Made by a program: the position numbers and the translations under genes. 64,000 nucleotides of DNA from an uncultured delta proteobacterium. Lineage in GTDB: Bacteria > Myxococcota_A > UBA9160 > SMWR01. Location of the stretch: positions 160,001 to 224,000 of the forward strand of contig CAWHTE010000004.1 of NCBI GenBank assembly GCA_963832165.1, read 5' to 3'. The notes beneath the pieces are model-generated. The model was not told the DNA's origin. It worked only from the letters and a program-made list of their open reading frames with translations, and searched no databases. Below, one piece after another: positions 50,648-60,650 of the stretch. Within the stretch, counting starts at the first letter, position 1. Each line of letters begins with the position of its first letter.

Positions 50648-50759
50648 GGCGGCTCCGCGCCCCTGTCTTCGCGGGCGCCATTTTGCTAATCGGACCCGCG
50701 TGTCGGAGAATCCCGGCGCTGCGCGCGGTGATCGTCACTGCGCGCACAACGAAGGAATT

Positions 50760-50836
50760 GGGGCGGTAGTTCAATCGGTTAGAGCACCGGCCTGTCACGC
50801 CGGAAGTTGCGGGTTCGAGTCCCGTCCGCCCCGCCA
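50760..50836 (+). tRNA. tRNA-Asp(GTC)
   Basis: GGGGCGG/CCGCCCC, CCGGC-CTGTCAC-GCCGG, encoded CCA. Confidence 0.95.
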
Positions 50837-50873
50837 TTCCCACTGGCTGCCACCCATCCAACAAAAGGAATCC

Positions 50874-52007
50874 ATGCGCAGAACAGCACTCGGAGTTTCG
50901 ATCGTTTCGTGTGTCTTCGCGCTTGCATGCGCGACCCCGGTCGTGAAACCCGTCGATGTCCAGCCGGTCACGCCTGGCCCCGGCGAGACCGTTGCGGTCG
51001 ACCAGTCGATCGTGATCGCCGACGTCTCGGGATCGATCGGTCGCAGGGACAATTTCCCGGGTGAGAAGGCGCTGGTCCAGTCGCTCGTGTCGTCGATGCC
51101 GGCGGGCAAGTACGAAGCGAGCGCGATCGCGTTCGGCGGCGTCAAGCGCGAGGTGCATCCGCTCGCGGCGTTCGATCGCGCGGGACTGGCCGATCACGCG
51201 GGCGACATCACCTACCTCAGCGAGGGCACGCCGCTCCATCAGGTGATTGCGGAGGCGGGCGCTTCGCTCAAGGGCAAGAGCGATCACGCCGCGATCACGG
51301 TGATCTCCGACGGCCATCCCACCGACGTCGTCGGCCGCCTGGTGGCGCAGGAGCTCACGCTCGATGCCGCGAAGGCGGTCGCGAAGGGCTATCAGGGGAA
51401 GGTCTGCTTCCACACGATCCAGGTCGGCTCCGATGGGGATGGCGCCGAGTTCCTGAAGAAGCTCTCGAACACGACCGACTGCGGGTCGCATCGCGCGGCG
51501 AGCTCGCTCCAGACCGCGGCGGCGATCCAGGGCTTCCAGCGCGACGTCTATTTCGCGAGCGCGCCCGTGGCGAGAGCTGCAGTGGACGGCGACGACGATG
51601 AAGACGGCGTGCTCAACAGCAAGGACCGGTGCCCGAACACTCCGAAGCTCGTGAGAGTGGATGACCGCGGGTGCTGGGCTTCGAGGGACGTGTACTTCGA
51701 GACGAACAGCGCCGAAATCGACGAAAACTCCAAGGAGCTGCTCCGGACGCTCGGCGTGGCGGTGCTCAAGGCGAACCCCGATCTGCGCGTTCGCGTCGAC
51801 GGGCATACCGACGCGCGCGGCAGCGACGCCTACAACCAGCAGCTCTCGGAGAAGCGCGCGGCGGCGGTGCGGAAGTTCTTCATCGACGAGGGGATCGACG
51901 GGGGTCGCCTCGAATCGCGCGGCTTCGGCGAGTCCTCGCCGGCCGCCCCGAACGACACCCCCGAGAACATGCGTCTGAATCGGCGCGTCGAGTTCACGCC
52001 GCTCTAG
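50874..52007 (+). CDS. Lipoprotein with VWA domain, TSP3-like repeat and OmpA C-terminal domain
   Basis: Lipobox ALAC; DVSGS MIDAS, ISDG; DGDDDEDGV..KDRCP; GHTD..GS..YN..LS..RA, NRRVE. Confidence 0.85.
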   Translation: MRRTALGVSIVSCVFALACATPVVKPVDVQPVTPGPGETVAVDQSIVIADVSGSIGRRDNFPGEKALVQSLVSSMPAGKYEASAIAFGGVKREVHPLAAFDRAGLADHAGDITYLSEGTPLHQVIAEAGASLKGKSDHAAITVISDGHPTDVVGRLVAQELTLDAAKAVAKGYQGKVCFHTIQVGSDGDGAEFLKKLSNTTDCGSHRAASSLQTAAAIQGFQRDVYFASAPVARAAVDGDDDEDGVLNSKDRCPNTPKLVRVDDRGCWASRDVYFETNSAEIDENSKELLRTLGVAVLKANPDLRVRVDGHTDARGSDAYNQQLSEKRAAAVRKFFIDEGIDGGRLESRGFGESSPAAPNDTPENMRLNRRVEFTPL

Positions 52008-55696: not shown

Positions 55697-56809
55697 ATGT
55701 TCGATCGCAAACGGGGTGTGGCGGCGGCGACGGCAGCGCTCGCGTTGCTCGTGCCGGTGGTTGCGGCGGGTCAGGGGAAGCTCGTCTCGAAGGGCGACAC
55801 GATCCATGGACACGTGGCCGATGTCACGGCCGAGGGCGTGGTCTTCGAGCCGGCCCAGGGCAAGGGTTCGATCGCGGTCAAATGGGCCGACGTGGAGTCG
55901 CTCGAGACCGACGGACCCTACACGGTGCTGCACGGCGACGCGGGCGAGGCGCGCGGGCGGATCCTCGGGTTCGAGGGGGGGGAGTTCCTGCTGATCGGCG
56001 ATGGGCCCGCGAACGCCGAACGCGTCGACGTCGGCGCGCTCGTCCATGCCTACGACGAGGGCAAGGCGACGGGCTCGTGGGTGGAGCGCATGCGCGGCCG
56101 GCTGCGCTTCTGGAAGGCCACGCTCGACGCGGCCGCGGCCTACACGGACAGCACCACCGACACGACCGCCGGAACCCTGGGCATGCTCATCGATCGCAAG
56201 AAGGCGCCCACCCACTTCCTGTTCGAAGCCGGCGCGCACTACGCGGACGAGAACGAGCAGCACGAGGAGCGCACGATCACCGAGAACACGCTGTTCGCGT
56301 TCGGACGCGGCGAGCTCGACCTGACCGAACACGTCTACACCTACGCGTCGTCGCGCTTCACCCACGACAATTCGCAGCACCTGGCGCTGCGCTCGGAGCC
56401 GCGCGCGGGCGCGGGCTATCACTTCATCAAGAGCAAGACGCGCAACTTCTCCACGGACGTCGGTCTCGCCTGGATCTCCGAGTCCTACTTCGGCGACGAG
56501 TTCATTGCGGTCGGGAACGACAGGGCGCGCGGTCGCAACGACTTCTGGGCCATCGCGTTCGGTACCCAGGCCGATGCCGTGCTGCCGTACGGGTCGCTCT
56601 GGCGGGCCCGCGCGGAGTACCTGCCCGCAGTCGACGACTGGCAGAACGAGTACCTCGCGCGCGCCGAGACCTCGCTGGACATGCCGATGCTGCAATGGCT
56701 GGCCTTCCGGCTCGCGTTCTCGGACGAATACGACAACACGCCCGCCCCGGGCGCACAGCACAACAAGTTCGTCACCACGGCCGGCTTCGCGATCCGCTTC
56801 ATCCCCTGA
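55697..56809 (+). CDS. DUF481-like outer-membrane beta-barrel protein
   Basis: Signal peptide, GDTIHG N-domain, alternating beta strands, YDNTPAPG near the C-terminus. Confidence 0.7.
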   Translation: MFDRKRGVAAATAALALLVPVVAAGQGKLVSKGDTIHGHVADVTAEGVVFEPAQGKGSIAVKWADVESLETDGPYTVLHGDAGEARGRILGFEGGEFLLIGDGPANAERVDVGALVHAYDEGKATGSWVERMRGRLRFWKATLDAAAAYTDSTTDTTAGTLGMLIDRKKAPTHFLFEAGAHYADENEQHEERTITENTLFAFGRGELDLTEHVYTYASSRFTHDNSQHLALRSEPRAGAGYHFIKSKTRNFSTDVGLAWISESYFGDEFIAVGNDRARGRNDFWAIAFGTQADAVLPYGSLWRARAEYLPAVDDWQNEYLARAETSLDMPMLQWLAFRLAFSDEYDNTPAPGAQHNKFVTTAGFAIRFIP

Positions 56810-56925
56810 CGCCCCCAAGTTGCACTTTTGAGACAACCGTCACGTTTCGGGGTCGCCGATCGCGCCGAATCGGATAGGGCAGGCGCTGGCCCCCACGGGC
56901 CGGCGCGGCGGCGGGAGGACAGCTC

Positions 56926-57342
56926 ATGCGCGACGACGCGAGCCCGAGCGGCGACCGTTCCGCGGGACCCCACGGCGATGGCTTCGAGCGGTATACGGTG
57001 AGCTTGATCGTGGTCTCCGGTCCCTTGACCGGTGAAGAGCACGTGGTGGAGCGACCGCGATGGGTGATCGGACGCGGGCCCGGCGTGGATGCCGCGTTCA
57101 CGGACCCCGAGATGTCACAGCACCACCTGCGTATCGAGTTCGAGCGCGGTCGCTTCCAGGTGATCGACCTCGACAGCACGAACGGGACCCGCGTGAACGG
57201 CACCGGGATCTCTTCCGCGGAGCTCGCACACGGCGACCGCATCCAAGCGGGCGCCCAGGTGTTCCAGATCCTGATCGAGAAGAACGCGCGGACCTGGCAG
57301 GGCCGGTCAGCGAGCGGCGACGTCGTTCCGCGGATCCAGTGA
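56926..57342 (+). CDS. FHA-domain protein
   Basis: IGRG, MSQHH, DLDSTNGTRVNG. Confidence 0.85.
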   Translation: MRDDASPSGDRSAGPHGDGFERYTVSLIVVSGPLTGEEHVVERPRWVIGRGPGVDAAFTDPEMSQHHLRIEFERGRFQVIDLDSTNGTRVNGTGISSAELAHGDRIQAGAQVFQILIEKNARTWQGRSASGDVVPRIQ

Positions 57343-58044
57343 CCAGGCCTGGAACGAGACCTGCCGCGCGTGCACGATGTAGCGCCACGGCGCGTCACCC
57401 ACGTGATAGAACGGGTAGCAGGTCACGAGCGTGAGCGTGCGATCGGCCGTGGGCGCGAGCACGTCGGTGCGCTTCGGGTCCACGATCTGGATCTTGTCGA
57501 CGCGATAGCGCACGACGCCGTCGAGTGTCGTGATCGACATTTCGTCGCCGGTCTCGAGGTGTCGCAGGCCGCGGAAGTAGCCGTCGCGATGACCCGCGAT
57601 CCCGAGATTCCCAGTCTCTCCGGGGCGAGCGGTCCCGGGGACGTGCCCGACTGCGCGATCGAGCGTGCTGTCTTCGGTGCCCTCGAGCACCATCACCGAG
57701 AGATCGGCGTCGGGAATCTCCAGACGCCCGATCGCGTTCACGGGCTTCTCGAGGCTCGCTTCGTACTTGGCGACGCGCGCGGGCGACCACTCGCGCGGGT
57801 TGGGCGGCGACTCCTCGTGGATCTGCCGCTGGACGCGCGCCTGGATCCGCGCGCGCACCGCCTCGTCGAACGCCGCGCTCTCGCGGCTCTGGGTCAGCGA
57901 TGCCCGCGCGCAGGCGCCGCCATAAGCGATCAGACACGCACCACCCGCGAGCGCAAGCGTGTACTCCGCGGCGCGCAAGGCAGTGCGCAGCGCGCGGTGG
58001 TGCACGGTCGTGGATCGCGGTGTGGTGGCGTCAGAGTCGCTCAA
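57307..58044 (-). CDS. Sortase (class D-like)
   Basis: N-terminal TM; IAGHRDGYF (His), TLVTCYPF (Cys), PWRYIV (Arg); AGGAG RBS. Confidence 0.92.
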   Translation of the reverse strand: MSDSDATTPRSTTVHHRALRTALRAAEYTLALAGGACLIAYGGACARASLTQSRESAAFDEAVRARIQARVQRQIHEESPPNPREWSPARVAKYEASLEKPVNAIGRLEIPDADLSVMVLEGTEDSTLDRAVGHVPGTARPGETGNLGIAGHRDGYFRGLRHLETGDEMSITTLDGVVRYRVDKIQIVDPKRTDVLAPTADRTLTLVTCYPFYHVGDAPWRYIVHARQVSFQAWSLDPRNDVAAR

Positions 58045-58068
58045 GACGGCTCTCCTGGAGCGCGAGCA

Positions 58069-58094
58069 GGTGGACCCGCTCGCGCGGGTCCACC
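58069..58094 (-). other. Intercistronic hairpin without U-tract
   Basis: Perfect 11-bp stem GGTGGACCCGC/GCGGGTCCACC; GCGA (GNRA) loop on the transcribed strand. Confidence 0.7.
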
Positions 58095-58098
58095 GGGA

Positions 58099-58350
58099 CT
58101 AGCGGATCCGGTTTCGCAGTACGTGCAGAGCGCCAGCACCCGCGAGAGCCGCCAGGCCCGAGAGGCCCAGCGCGGGCAGCGAGCTACCGGTCTTGGGCAG
58201 CTCGCGCACTTCCGGCTCGTAGACGGGCTCGGGCGCGGGCGGCGCCGGCTCGGCCACGGGCGGGGTCGGCGGCGGAGTCTCCGGCTCGGGAGAGCTCGCA
58301 CACGCAACCAGGTTGAATACGAGTCCAAGGATCAAAAGCAAACGCACCAT
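58099..58350 (-). CDS. 83-aa lipoprotein with LPXTG sorting signal
   Basis: MVRLLLILGLVFNLVA-C lipobox, 33-aa Pro/Glu spacer, LPKTG, hydrophobic helix, RNRIR basic tail. Confidence 0.88.
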   Translation of the reverse strand: MVRLLLILGLVFNLVACASSPEPETPPPTPPVAEPAPPAPEPVYEPEVRELPKTGSSLPALGLSGLAALAGAGALHVLRNRIR

Positions 58351-58431
58351 GAAATGCCTCACTAGGGGGGTTTAGAACGCGGGCAATCATTGCATAGCCA
58401 TCGTGGCTTTGCATCGCGTGTTGGTAACGGC

Positions 58432-59754
58432 TCAGGACTCCTCCTGCTCCCGGCGCCGCCGCCAAGCCTCGAGCCATTCGGCCTGTGCGGCCTCCGCTCC
58501 GGAGCGACTGGGCTGATAGAAAGTCGCCTTTCCCAGCGCATCGGGCAGGTTGTTGCGCGCGACGAACGCATCGGGCGCGTCGTGCGGATAGGTGTAGTCG
58601 CGCCCATAACCGAGCCCTTCCATGAGCCGCGTGGGCGCATTGCGCAGGTGCAGCGGCACGGGCTGCGAGCCGTGCTCCTCGACCGCCGCGAGTGCCCGCC
58701 CGAGCGCGCGGTAGGCCGCGTTGCTCTTGGGCGCGCAGGCGAGATGGGTAATCGCCTGGGCCAGCGGAATCCTGCCTTCGGGCAGACCGATCCGCTCCGC
58801 GGCGAGATAGGCCGCAGTGGCCACGCCCAGCGCCGTGGGATCGGCATTGCCCACATCCTCGGAAGCGAAGATCACGAGTCTCCTTGCCAGGAACAGCAGA
58901 TCGTCCCCCGCCGCGAGCAGGCGGGCCGCGTAGTAGAGCGCCGCGTCCGGATCGCTCGCGCGCAAGCTCTTGATGAACGCAGACGCGAGGTTGTAGTGCT
59001 CTTCGCGGTCGCGGTCATGCAGTAGAGTTCGGCGCCCGACCGCTTCTCGCACCGTGTCGAGCGTCACGCGTCCGTCATTTCCTGAGATCGCGGCCGCAGT
59101 TTCGAGGATGCCTAGCGCGCGCCGCGCATCGCCGTCCGCTGTGTGCGCGATCGCTGCGATCACTTCGTCGTCGAGCGCAGCGCGCCCGCCGAGACCGCGT
59201 TCATTCTCCGCTGCGCGACGAACCAGCAGCGCGAGTGCATCTTCGCGGAGCCGCTCGAGCACATAGACGCGGCAGCGCGAGAGCAAAGGTGCGATCACTT
59301 CGAACGAGGGATTCTCAGTGGTGGCGCCCACGAGTGTCACGGTGCCGCGCTCGACGTGCGGCAAGAGCGTGTCCTGCTGCGCGCGGTTCAAGCGGTGGAT
59401 CTCGTCGAGGAACAACACGGTGCGGCGGCGTTCGCGTCCCGCACGCTCGACAACGGCGCGGATCTCCTTCACGCCGGCGGTCACCGCAGAGAGCGGTTCG
59501 AAATGGGCACCGATCACCTCGGCGAGCAAGCGCGCGATCGTGGTCTTCCCGCTGCCGGGCGGACCCCAGAGGATCAGCGACGGCAGCGTGCCCGCATCGA
59601 GCAGTGCACGCAGCCCCGCGCCGGGCGCGAGCAGCTGCGGCTGTCCGACCACCTCGTCGAGTAGCCGCGGGCGCATGCGCTCCGCGAGCGGCGCGTTCGG
59701 CGGCTCCCCCGGTCCGCTGCTCGCGCTCGGGAACAGGTCGAGCGACTGGGGCAT
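58432..59754 (-). CDS. rarA: Replication-associated recombination protein A
   Basis: PLAERMRP, WGPPGSGKTT, DEIHR, ATTENPSF, SEDVGNADP, HLRNAPT. Confidence 0.95.
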   Translation of the reverse strand: MPQSLDLFPSASSGPGEPPNAPLAERMRPRLLDEVVGQPQLLAPGAGLRALLDAGTLPSLILWGPPGSGKTTIARLLAEVIGAHFEPLSAVTAGVKEIRAVVERAGRERRRTVLFLDEIHRLNRAQQDTLLPHVERGTVTLVGATTENPSFEVIAPLLSRCRVYVLERLREDALALLVRRAAENERGLGGRAALDDEVIAAIAHTADGDARRALGILETAAAISGNDGRVTLDTVREAVGRRTLLHDRDREEHYNLASAFIKSLRASDPDAALYYAARLLAAGDDLLFLARRLVIFASEDVGNADPTALGVATAAYLAAERIGLPEGRIPLAQAITHLACAPKSNAAYRALGRALAAVEEHGSQPVPLHLRNAPTRLMEGLGYGRDYTYPHDAPDAFVARNNLPDALGKATFYQPSRSGAEAAQAEWLEAWRRRREQEES

Positions 59755-59773
59755 GCGCAGAGCCTAGCAACGT

Positions 59774-60650
59774 GTGATTCTTTCCGGCGTGAAGCTCCAG
59801 ACGGTCGGAATCTGCGTCAAGCGCGATCAGCCGCAGGTGGCCGAACGCGTCGCCGCGCTCGAGGAGTGGCTGCACGATCACGGCGTGGAGGTGCTGCTCG
59901 ACCGGGAAGCCGCGCGCTGGCTGGGCCGTCAGGGCACCGAGCTCGACGATCTCGCGGCGCGCGTCGATCTCCTGATCGTGCTCGGCGGCGACGGCACGCT
60001 GCTCTCCGCCGCCCGCGCGATCGGCGAGCGCGCAGGTGCCGCTCCTGGGCGTGAACCTGGGCACGCTCGGCTTCCTCGCGGAGACCTCGACCGACGATCT
60101 CTACGACGCGCTCGAACACGCGTTCGCGGGGCGTCTGATCGTCGCGCCGCGCATGCGCCTCGACGTCGAGGTCGAGCGCGACGGTCAAGTCGTCGGGCGC
60201 TATCTCGCGCTGAACGACGCCGTGATCGGAAAGAGCGCGCTCTCGCGCATGATCGACCTCGAGACGCGCGCCGATGGCGCCTTCGTCACCACCTATCATT
60301 CCGACGGGTTGATCGTCGCCACGCCGACCGGATCGTCGGCCTACTCGCTATCGGCGGGCGGTCCCCTGCTGTTGCCCGAAGACGAGGCGATCGTACTCAC
60401 GCCGATCTGTCCGCACACGCTGACGCAGCGGCCTCTCGTGCTTCCGGATCGCTACCGGATCGAGATCCTCGTGCTCGACACGCGCGGCGGCGACGTGCAC
60501 CTGACCGTGGACGGCCAGGTGGGGGTCGTGATCGAGCAGCGCGATCGCGTCACTGTGACGCGTTCGGCTCATCCCGCGCGACTGCTCGTGTCGCCGCATC
60601 GCAGCGCCTTCGCCGTGATGCGCGAGAAGCTCCGCTGGGGCGAGCGTTGA
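59774..60650 (+). CDS. nadK: NAD kinase (frameshift ~60034)
   Basis: LGGDGTLL | GVNLGTLGFL, ALND, DGLIVATPTGSSAYSLSAGGP. Confidence 0.92.

Follow-up and report, generated by a model that had tools for sequence, protein, structure and literature searches.

Only for few bacteria is there detailed knowledge of how the outer membrane is fastened to the cell wall, and the locus described here raises the question of whether a sortase may do this. The locus lies in a 64,000-nucleotide (nt) stretch of DNA from an uncultured delta proteobacterium of soil (assembly GCA_963832165.1, contig CAWHTE010000004.1, positions 160,001 to 224,000; hereafter the window) and comprises, on the minus strand, a gene for a protein of 83 amino acids (aa) followed by a sortase gene. 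An earlier note on this DNA had read the small protein as a lipoprotein that the sortase would attach to peptidoglycan. Judged from sequence comparisons, the best explanation of the two genes is a dedicated one-enzyme, one-substrate module; the whole explanation, in which this module would build a covalent tether from the outer membrane to the peptidoglycan, is given a probability of roughly 0.4.

The small precursor and the neighbouring sortase

The earlier note had described the small open reading frame (ORF) as a lipobox (LVAC), a 33-residue spacer with 13 Pro, an LPKTG motif, a hydrophobic helix and an RNRIR tail, and all of these numbers proved correct. In lipoprotein precursors, the lipobox [LVI][ASTVI][GAS]C follows a basic n-region and an h-region, with the Cys at about position 15-35. 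The small protein agrees with this pattern (M-V-R... at its start, then L14-V15-A16-C17), and Ala16 and Cys17 are invariant in the eight aligned sequences; pattern and Cys conservation together predict a lipoprotein precursor. The spacer is 39% Pro and contains 7 Asp/Glu and 1 Lys/Arg. The L, P and T of the LPKTG motif are invariant in the alignment, the hydrophobic stretch that follows is 23 aa long and rich in Gly, Ala and Leu, and the predicted mature product, from Cys to Thr, has 38 residues. Scored against the LPXTG hidden Markov model TIGR01167, a check that had been proposed for this ORF, the small protein reached 24.3 bits for a cut-off of 15.9 (25.8 in a six-frame scan of the genome), and it reached 26.8 for a cut-off of 20 against PF00746. 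The latter was its sole Pfam match. With a rise of 0.31 nm per residue in a polyproline II helix, 38 residues span up to ~12 nm, and the 33-50 residues found in the family span 10-15 nm; actual end-to-end distances would be shorter than this maximum.

The neighbouring gene, by its sequence, encodes an intact class-D-like sortase carried on a membrane-anchored helical stalk. The protein matched PF04203 with 109.3 bits (cut-off 26.6, E 1.4e-31) and also TIGR01076, the general sortase model, with 90.6 (cut-off 39.35). The catalytic His, Cys and Arg, which had been reported as intact, are His152 (IAGHRD), Cys209 (TLVTC) and Arg221 and are invariant in 12 of 12 orthologues, and the start column of the sortase matches that of these orthologues in the alignment. 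Its best solved relatives are Clostridium perfringens SrtD (4d70, E 5.9e-19) and a class D sortase of Bacillus anthracis (2ln7, E 8.7e-16), with whose catalytic residues the GHR His, the TLVTC Cys and the RY(I/V) Arg align. An AlphaFold2 model made from 12 orthologues (predicted local distance difference test, pLDDT, 80.4) consists of one long helix (aa 12-76), a short helix and a barrel (aa 104-233); the long helix takes in the hydrophobic segment at aa 28-46 and ~30 further residues of stalk. When this model was searched with Foldseek, 4d70 was ranked first (E 2.3e-13) and 138 PDB matches were obtained at E <= 0.001, sortases throughout among the matches listed. The class GN model TIGR03784 gave 95.5 bits for a cut-off of 158.25, and the substrate lacks a VWA domain. 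A complex prediction for sortase aa 98-245 and substrate aa 34-70 (score 0.01, mark 0.32) weighs neither way.

Two Cys in the N-terminal segment of the sortase, Cys37 and Cys45, are conserved without exception in the 12 sortases that accompany the small lipoprotein and are absent at that position in the wider family. With its A-C-[ATS] context, Cys45 looks like part of either a lipobox or an AxA signal-peptidase site, and it may belong to one of these or to neither. That the sortase is itself a lipoprotein was considered from this A-C and not adopted: the Cys lies 45 residues in, it has a Tyr at -4, which is outside the PROSITE lipoprotein pattern, and the AlphaFold2 helix is continuous.

The genome (5.5 Mb in 11 contigs, 89% complete, 69.6% GC) was scanned in six frames for further enzymes and substrates. 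One sortase match was found, and TIGR01167 likewise gave one match, the small ORF, 54 nt upstream of the sortase gene. With one sortase and one LPXTG ORF side by side, the pair would be one enzyme with one substrate. A pattern scan for sortase signals yielded 35 loose matches, among which the small ORF was the sole clean LPXTG signal. A second candidate substrate on contig C4 (~690411-691712, minus strand, locus L113) has a tail (...AKLPRTAPPIPAL...RSRRRS / ...DLGFRVAKLPRTAPPIPAL...RSRRRS) that loosely resembles a sortase signal, but its gene is broken between two reading frames; it was rejected as unsupported, having no TIGR01167 match at E <= 1, nor one in the six-frame genome scan. We regard the small protein as very probably the substrate of the sortase. 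Confidence in predicted cleavage after Thr54 is high, since such signals serve that purpose and the genome has no other sortase or substrate.

Conservation of the gene pair and of the wider sortase family

The earlier note had proposed a search for the pair in related genomes, and in 11 of 13 loci the two genes are adjacent, on the same strand and with the small gene first; the other two loci end at a contig edge. The nearest named relatives are metagenome-assembled genomes labelled Myxococcota. Among 61 relatives, an orthologue-level sortase (E <= 2.2e-64) was present in nine: the seven genomes of the genus without exception, one from a second genus of the family, and one from a genus in a different family of the order. 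Strong matches to a profile of the small protein (E <= 1.4e-25) were found in eight of these nine genomes and in none of the other 52, the sortase of the ninth being located at a contig end. Six other genomes gave weak matches (E >= 3.4e-6) that cover Pro-rich or anchor parts only. When 401 genomes sampled across the phylum were searched, six had a match at E <= 1e-8, all in the same order, and in the three that were new the small gene is directly upstream of the sortase gene. The flanking rarA, FHA and DUF481 genes are common to the genus only; elsewhere only the pair persists.

The small protein itself belongs to a larger family. A word-index search returned 152 proteins at E <= 1e-3, and the best 120 of the 152, which are 69-139 aa long, were examined with a strict pattern that requires a lipobox Cys as well as [LIVMFA]PxT[GASN] located 15-35 residues before the C-terminal end. 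Both end signals, lipobox Cys and LPxT[GA], were retained in 116 of the 120; the four failures were two wrong or extended starts, one VMAC missed by the pattern, and P0058, which has LPKRG. A further check proposed in advance was whether spacer length stays constant while its sequence drifts, and this is the picture obtained: the spacers of the 116 are 28-45 aa long (median 36, interquartile range 35-40), and the 117 homologues accepted by a slightly wider pattern (117/120) contain 115 different spacer sequences. In these 117, spacers are on average 35% P, 16% E, 15% A and 10% V with a mean net charge of -4.3, and the C-terminal tail is 24-31 aa long. The sortase motif among the 116 is LPKTA in 69, LPKTG in 39, LPRTG in four, LPDTA in three and LPRTA in one. 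The residue at +2, which the earlier note had judged compatible with sorting to the outer membrane, is Ala in 104, Thr in eight, Ser in two, Leu in one and Phe in one, and never Asp or Lys. That only the two ends and the length are conserved fits a pure connector.

An exhaustive profile search over 1.84 billion representatives found 402 proteins at E <= 1e-3 (22 at E <= 1e-10), and 10 proteins were obtained when alignment A4 served as the profile. Of 134 new proteins listed from the exhaustive search, 41 have a lipobox-like Cys together with a sorting signal, and a further 88 carry the signal but no lipobox. One of the divergent set, P0187, has an ordinary signal peptide.

In a species-representative genome collection, 139 relatives of the sortase were found and the best 80 of the 139 were examined. 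They come from Acidobacteriota, Gammaproteobacteria (Halieaceae, Woeseiaceae, Steroidobacteraceae), Myxococcota and one Methylomirabilota, and sortases of this wider family are 37-59% identical to that of the window. In 55 of the 80 loci, an ORF beside the sortase gene combines [LM]PxT[GAS] with a hydrophobic stretch and a basic tail; 43 of these 55 ORFs are downstream of the sortase. Outside the four small-lipoprotein loci, these substrates are 160-450 aa long and have ordinary AxA-type signal peptides, three scripted 'lipobox' flags having turned out to be artefacts on inspection. In an alignment of 13 substrates, two domains rich in beta-structure, an Ala/Pro/Gly spacer of variable sequence and an LPKTA-SPLP..GL..RRR signal can be recognised. 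In a model of one wider-family substrate (pLDDT 62.5) the spacer is disordered at 175-238; the model had no PDB match at E <= 0.001, the best rows being TOBE/OB-like small barrels at E >= 4e-3. Pfam searches of 11 substrates returned the anchor motif in two and otherwise only, in L026, CusF_Ec just over its cut-off, plus sub-threshold small barrels.

In a quick maximum-likelihood tree (IQ-TREE; 95 rows, five duplicate rows left out), all 10 small-lipoprotein sortases cluster together (approximate likelihood-ratio test, aLRT, 94) inside an 88-row family (aLRT 100), apart from seven class GN sortases. The simplest reading is that the wider sortase family pins periplasmic proteins by a flexible spacer, and that in one myxobacterial lineage the cargo has been reduced to a lipid anchor. 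As an observation in its own right, the loci L026-L100 (Acidobacteriota, Halieaceae, Woeseiaceae, Steroidobacteraceae, Myxococcaceae) represent a large and apparently undescribed family of Gram-negative sortases; no description of this sortase-substrate family was found in the literature search, and it includes the cultured strains Parahalioglobus pacificus KCTC 23430 and Litorirhabdus singularis IMCC14734.

A candidate outer membrane tether and competing explanations

The host had been taken for a diderm from an outer-membrane barrel-like protein and an OmpA-domain lipoprotein in the window. The DUF481 match of the former, the OmpA-like match of the latter and a BamA match of 562 bits in the genome agree with this. 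Of the lipoprotein machinery, LspA is present, Lnt has one match over its cut-off and LolA has two matches. MurE of this genome carries the DNPR motif, which we take to be a signature of enzymes adding meso-diaminopimelate (mDAP). A check for the absence of lpp, also proposed in advance, found no PF04728 match in the genome; since Lpp occurs in only four gammaproteobacterial orders (bioRxiv 10.1101/2021.05.31.446380), this absence is uninformative.

The proposed pathway would comprise four steps. Firstly, the precursor would be exported by Sec, Lgt, LspA and Lnt would lipidate Cys17 and remove the signal peptide, and the C-terminal helix would meanwhile keep the other end in the inner membrane. 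Secondly, the sortase would cleave LPKT|G and form a thioester with Thr54. Thirdly, the side-chain amine of mDAP, in lipid II or in the wall, would resolve this thioester, giving a 38-residue lipopeptide amide-linked to peptidoglycan. Finally, given Ala at +2 and no Asp/Lys retention signal, the lipid end would be carried to the outer membrane by LolCDE and LolA. The outcome would be a covalent tether between outer membrane and peptidoglycan, doing the job of Braun's lipoprotein by sortase chemistry and with a Pro-rich rod.

None of the sequence-level checks proposed in advance spoke against this reading. The steps of the pathway differ in strength, and we infer both the junction of Thr38 of the mature product to peptidoglycan and the placement of its lipid end in the outer membrane. 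The mDAP of the wall is the putative acceptor by analogy with the class D enzymes that are the nearest solved structures, and with B. anthracis SrtC, which cleaves LPNTA between T and A with m-Dpm cross-bridges as nucleophile and also works in the forespore, a compartment bounded by two membranes (PMC3297441). The product is somewhat more probably wall-linked than otherwise. The outer membrane location is suggested by the absence of Asp or Lys at +2. In Myxococcus xanthus, Lys is found at +2 in 8 of 12 inner-membrane lipoproteins (PMC3222651), and a +2 residue that is never Asp or Lys means that no known inner-membrane retention signal of Escherichia coli or M. xanthus is present. The full outer membrane tether, which needs both placements, remains a tentative assignment, a little short of even odds.

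Several observations weigh against the tether reading. Catalysis, acceptor and location are all predictions made from the two genes and their relatives. The lipobox of the small protein has Asn at -4, which the older PROSITE lipoprotein pattern excludes, and the closest class models of the sortase, both class D, scored below their curated cut-offs (NF058671, 134.3 for 140; NF033746, 123 for 165). The Cys37/Cys45 pair could change the topology of the enzyme. Lol would have to pull out a lipoprotein that is still tied at its other end, be it by a helix, a thioester or the wall, and the timing of Lol extraction relative to sortase transfer poses a kinetic problem. Some of the 41 distant homologues, which are highly divergent and 73-113 aa long, have pattern-counted spacers of 24-60 aa that are not always Pro-rich, which weakens a strict ruler model. 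The genome also contains candidates for conventional tethering, namely 11 matches to OmpA-like domains (10 over the cut-off) and seven to the YkuD L,D-transpeptidase domain, so that the small lipoprotein would be one tether among several. Finally, the module is patchy (8 of 61 relatives, 6 of 401 genomes of the phylum) and thus dispensable for this kind of cell.

The same link from Thr54 to mDAP might also be made on a lipopeptide that keeps its lipid in the inner membrane's outer leaflet, in which case the peptide would tie the wall to the cytoplasmic membrane or set that distance. All the evidence for sortase processing and for the mDAP acceptor applies equally here, and because enzyme, precursor and lipid II are all at the inner membrane, no transport step would be needed. 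Signals for Lol avoidance vary between taxa (PMC3222651), and a covalent link of an inner-membrane protein to peptidoglycan exists in Dickeya (PMC12274547). We nevertheless consider an inner membrane tether unlikely, as neither known retention signal, Lys or Asp at +2, occurs in any of the 116 homologues, and the genome has two LolA matches. In E. coli the outer membrane is the default destination of lipoproteins that lack a retention signal, a rule that would have to be extrapolated to this host.

Another improbable alternative concerns the acceptor. The sortase could clip off the C-terminal helix by hydrolysis and free a 38-aa lipopeptide for Lol, or ligate it to another amine (a protein lysine, an N-terminus or the head group of phosphatidylethanolamine), in which case the small protein would be a portable lipid anchor. 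A lipoprotein needs no C-terminal helix merely to have it removed, the closest solved enzymes attach their substrates to mDAP, and the mature peptide has no conserved motif except at its ends; no conserved acceptor gene travels with the pair, whose flanks differ outside the genus. The sole conserved Lys is the one within LPKT, and it is replaced by Arg or Asp in 8 of 116 homologues, which argues against pilus-like self-polymerisation. On the other side, hydrolysis of the thioester is within the reach of sortases, protein lysines are the acceptors of class C enzymes, the sequence does not reveal any acceptor, and the two clade-invariant N-terminal Cys, absent from the wider family, hint at a clade-specific feature. 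That the small ORF is non-functional, a chance product of 70%-GC DNA or a protein with coincidental motifs, is very improbable: high-GC DNA is rich in long spurious ORFs (46 of at least 40 aa in 6 kb) and the protein is of low complexity, but it has 152 homologues that keep both end signals while the spacer drifts, it is the only HMM match of the genome, beside the only sortase and behind a correctly spaced Shine-Dalgarno sequence, and it strictly co-occurs with the orthologous sortase.

Gene layout, known systems and significance

The features of the locus are collected below. On the minus strand, 81 nt separate rarA from the small gene and 54 nt separate the small gene from the sortase gene. 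An alternative GTG start at 58362, read from the sequence, would be placed inside the Shine-Dalgarno sequence of the small gene.

Table. Features of the small lipoprotein-sortase locus (positions in the window)
Feature	Position	Strand	Remark
RarA/MgsA ATPase gene	58432-59754	-	first of three genes in a row
Shine-Dalgarno GAGG	58357..58360	-	6 nt before ATG 58350
Small lipoprotein/LPXTG precursor gene (predicted)	58099..58350	-	83 aa, ATG 58350, stop codon included
Signal peptide MVRLLLILGLVFNLVA	58303..58350	-	n-region Arg3, h-region, lipobox L-V-A ahead of Cys
Cys17 codon TGT	58300..58302	-	predicted lipidated +1 residue
Pro/Glu-rich spacer, 33 aa	58201..58299	-	13 Pro, net acidic, no predicted fold
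LPKTG sortase motif	58186..58200	-	predicted cleavage after Thr54
Hydrophobic segment SSLPALGL...HVL and RNRIR stop-transfer tail	58102..58185	-	
AGGAGA Shine-Dalgarno of sortase gene	58051-58056	-	6 nt upstream of TTG
Sortase gene	57307..58044	-	245 aa, TTG start 58044
Sortase N-terminal hydrophobic segment, aa 28-46	57907..57963	-	invariant Cys37 and Cys45
Sortase catalytic beta-barrel, aa 104-233	57346..57735	-	
Sortase catalytic His152	57589-57591	-	
Sortase catalytic Cys209	57418-57420	-	
Sortase catalytic Arg221	57382-57384	-	
FHA-domain gene	56926-57342	+	converges on sortase gene
DUF481 outer-membrane barrel gene	55697-56809	+	beyond FHA gene
Soil metatranscriptome contig, 256 nt, 1 mismatch	57935..58190	.	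bridges end of small gene and start of sortase gene

A scan of 56800-60000 for promoters and terminators found none between rarA and the small gene. The gap itself (58361-58431, minus strand) is relatively AT-rich and contains a small hairpin, AGCCA-CGA-UGGCU, inside GCAA..UUGC-like arms; its folding is not better than that of shuffled sequences (z -0.62). In run X20, eight pieces matched the 3-kb stretch, and the metatranscriptome contig over both genes was the sole near-identical one. This contig is only a weak hint of expression, since contigs show presence and not level or strand and an RNA library may contain DNA. In the expression search, no run contained even one fifth of the words of the stretch, and parts without coverage are uninformative.

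Elsewhere in the window, the OmpA-domain protein (50700-52007, plus strand), when read from an internal Met, begins MRRTALGVSIVSCVFALAC|A, with lipobox ALAC, and is a lipoprotein with Ala at +2; the region ahead of its OmpA_C domain may be VWA-like. An opposite-strand translation at ~50.5-50.7 kb looks like a tRNA gene region. In the rest of the genome, contigs C1, C5 and C11 carry several ORFs with PEP-CTERM-like tails (VPEP..hydrophobic..RRR), and an exosortase system is probably also present.

Among known systems, the closest in outcome would be Lpp with LdtA/B/C, found in Enterobacterales and three other gammaproteobacterial orders. Lpp (58 aa when mature) is likewise small, is anchored by a lipid through Lgt, LspA and Lnt, has its mDAP amide link at the C-terminus, where it is predicted here, and has no function beyond connecting and spacing. 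The two are not homologous (PF04728): Lpp is a trimeric coiled coil whereas the window protein has a Pro/Glu-rich rod, and Lpp is linked through the epsilon-amine of a C-terminal Lys by a YkuD enzyme whereas here a Cys-transpeptidase sortase would use the carboxyl of a Thr. The window precursor also carries a second, transient membrane anchor.

The class D enzymes of Firmicutes (B. anthracis SrtC with BasH/BasI, C. perfringens SrtD) are the best matches in sequence and fold and have few dedicated substrates. They share an LPxTA-type motif with the family, in which LPKTA is found in 69 of 116 members, the window's own being LPKTG; class D sortases have been linked to LPXTA (PMC8225981). They differ in that the window host is a diderm of the Myxococcota, the sortase has a long stalk with two invariant Cys, and the substrate is a lipoprotein without a folded domain. 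Class GN ('marine proteobacterial', TIGR03784; Comfort and Clubb 2004 as cited in PMC8225981) resembles the module in having one sortase with one adjacent substrate in a Gram-negative host, and is also uncharacterised in the account given there. It forms a separate clade, and its substrates are large VWA proteins (L016, with a DxSxS motif), not lipoproteins. The wider sortases of Acidobacteriota, Gammaproteobacteria and Myxococcota belong to the same family and have the LPxTA-SPLP..GL..RRR signal with a disordered spacer before the motif; their substrates, by contrast, have folded beta-domains and a type-I signal and are mostly encoded downstream, and the enzymes lack the N-terminal Cys pair. 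Finally, a Pro-rich, periplasm-spanning segment recalls TonB, in which rigid (Glu-Pro)-rich segments span the periplasm, and homologue P0090 was even named 'TonB' by its source; the small protein has neither the TonB C-terminal domain nor an ExbBD partner, and both of its ends are anchoring signals.

A full-text literature search, outside which most subscription-journal papers lie, found no natural sortase-lipoprotein tether in a diderm, the items returned being Gram-positive reviews, engineered Lpp-OmpA display and the unrelated sorting systems PEP-CTERM and MYXO-CTERM. In the passages concerned, a 2026 review covers sortases for monoderms only (PMC13721041) and a 2021 review describes Gram-negative sortases as not well characterised (PMC8225981). 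The parts (sortase, LPXTG signal, lipobox) are of known kinds, and their combination as a minimal double-anchored diderm connector is undescribed as far as we found.

In conclusion, a diderm lineage of the Myxococcota may have independently invented a sortase-based equivalent of Braun's lipoprotein, a 33-50-residue Pro/Glu-rich lipopeptide acting as tether and as spacer or ruler, although we hold this view only tentatively. Such an equivalent would stand at the extreme of a much wider, undescribed use of sortases to attach proteins of the periplasm to the thin Gram-negative walls of Acidobacteriota, Gammaproteobacteria and Myxococcota. With one enzyme, one 38-residue product, two anchoring signals and a length, the module is about the simplest possible test object for such a connection. 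It also points to a large uncharacterised sortase-substrate family in Acidobacteriota and marine Gammaproteobacteria, cultured strains included. If the product is wall-linked, the module would represent convergent tethering of the outer membrane by a different chemistry, the first assigned function for a diderm sortase, and a natural spacer of engineerable length with which to probe the width of the periplasm.

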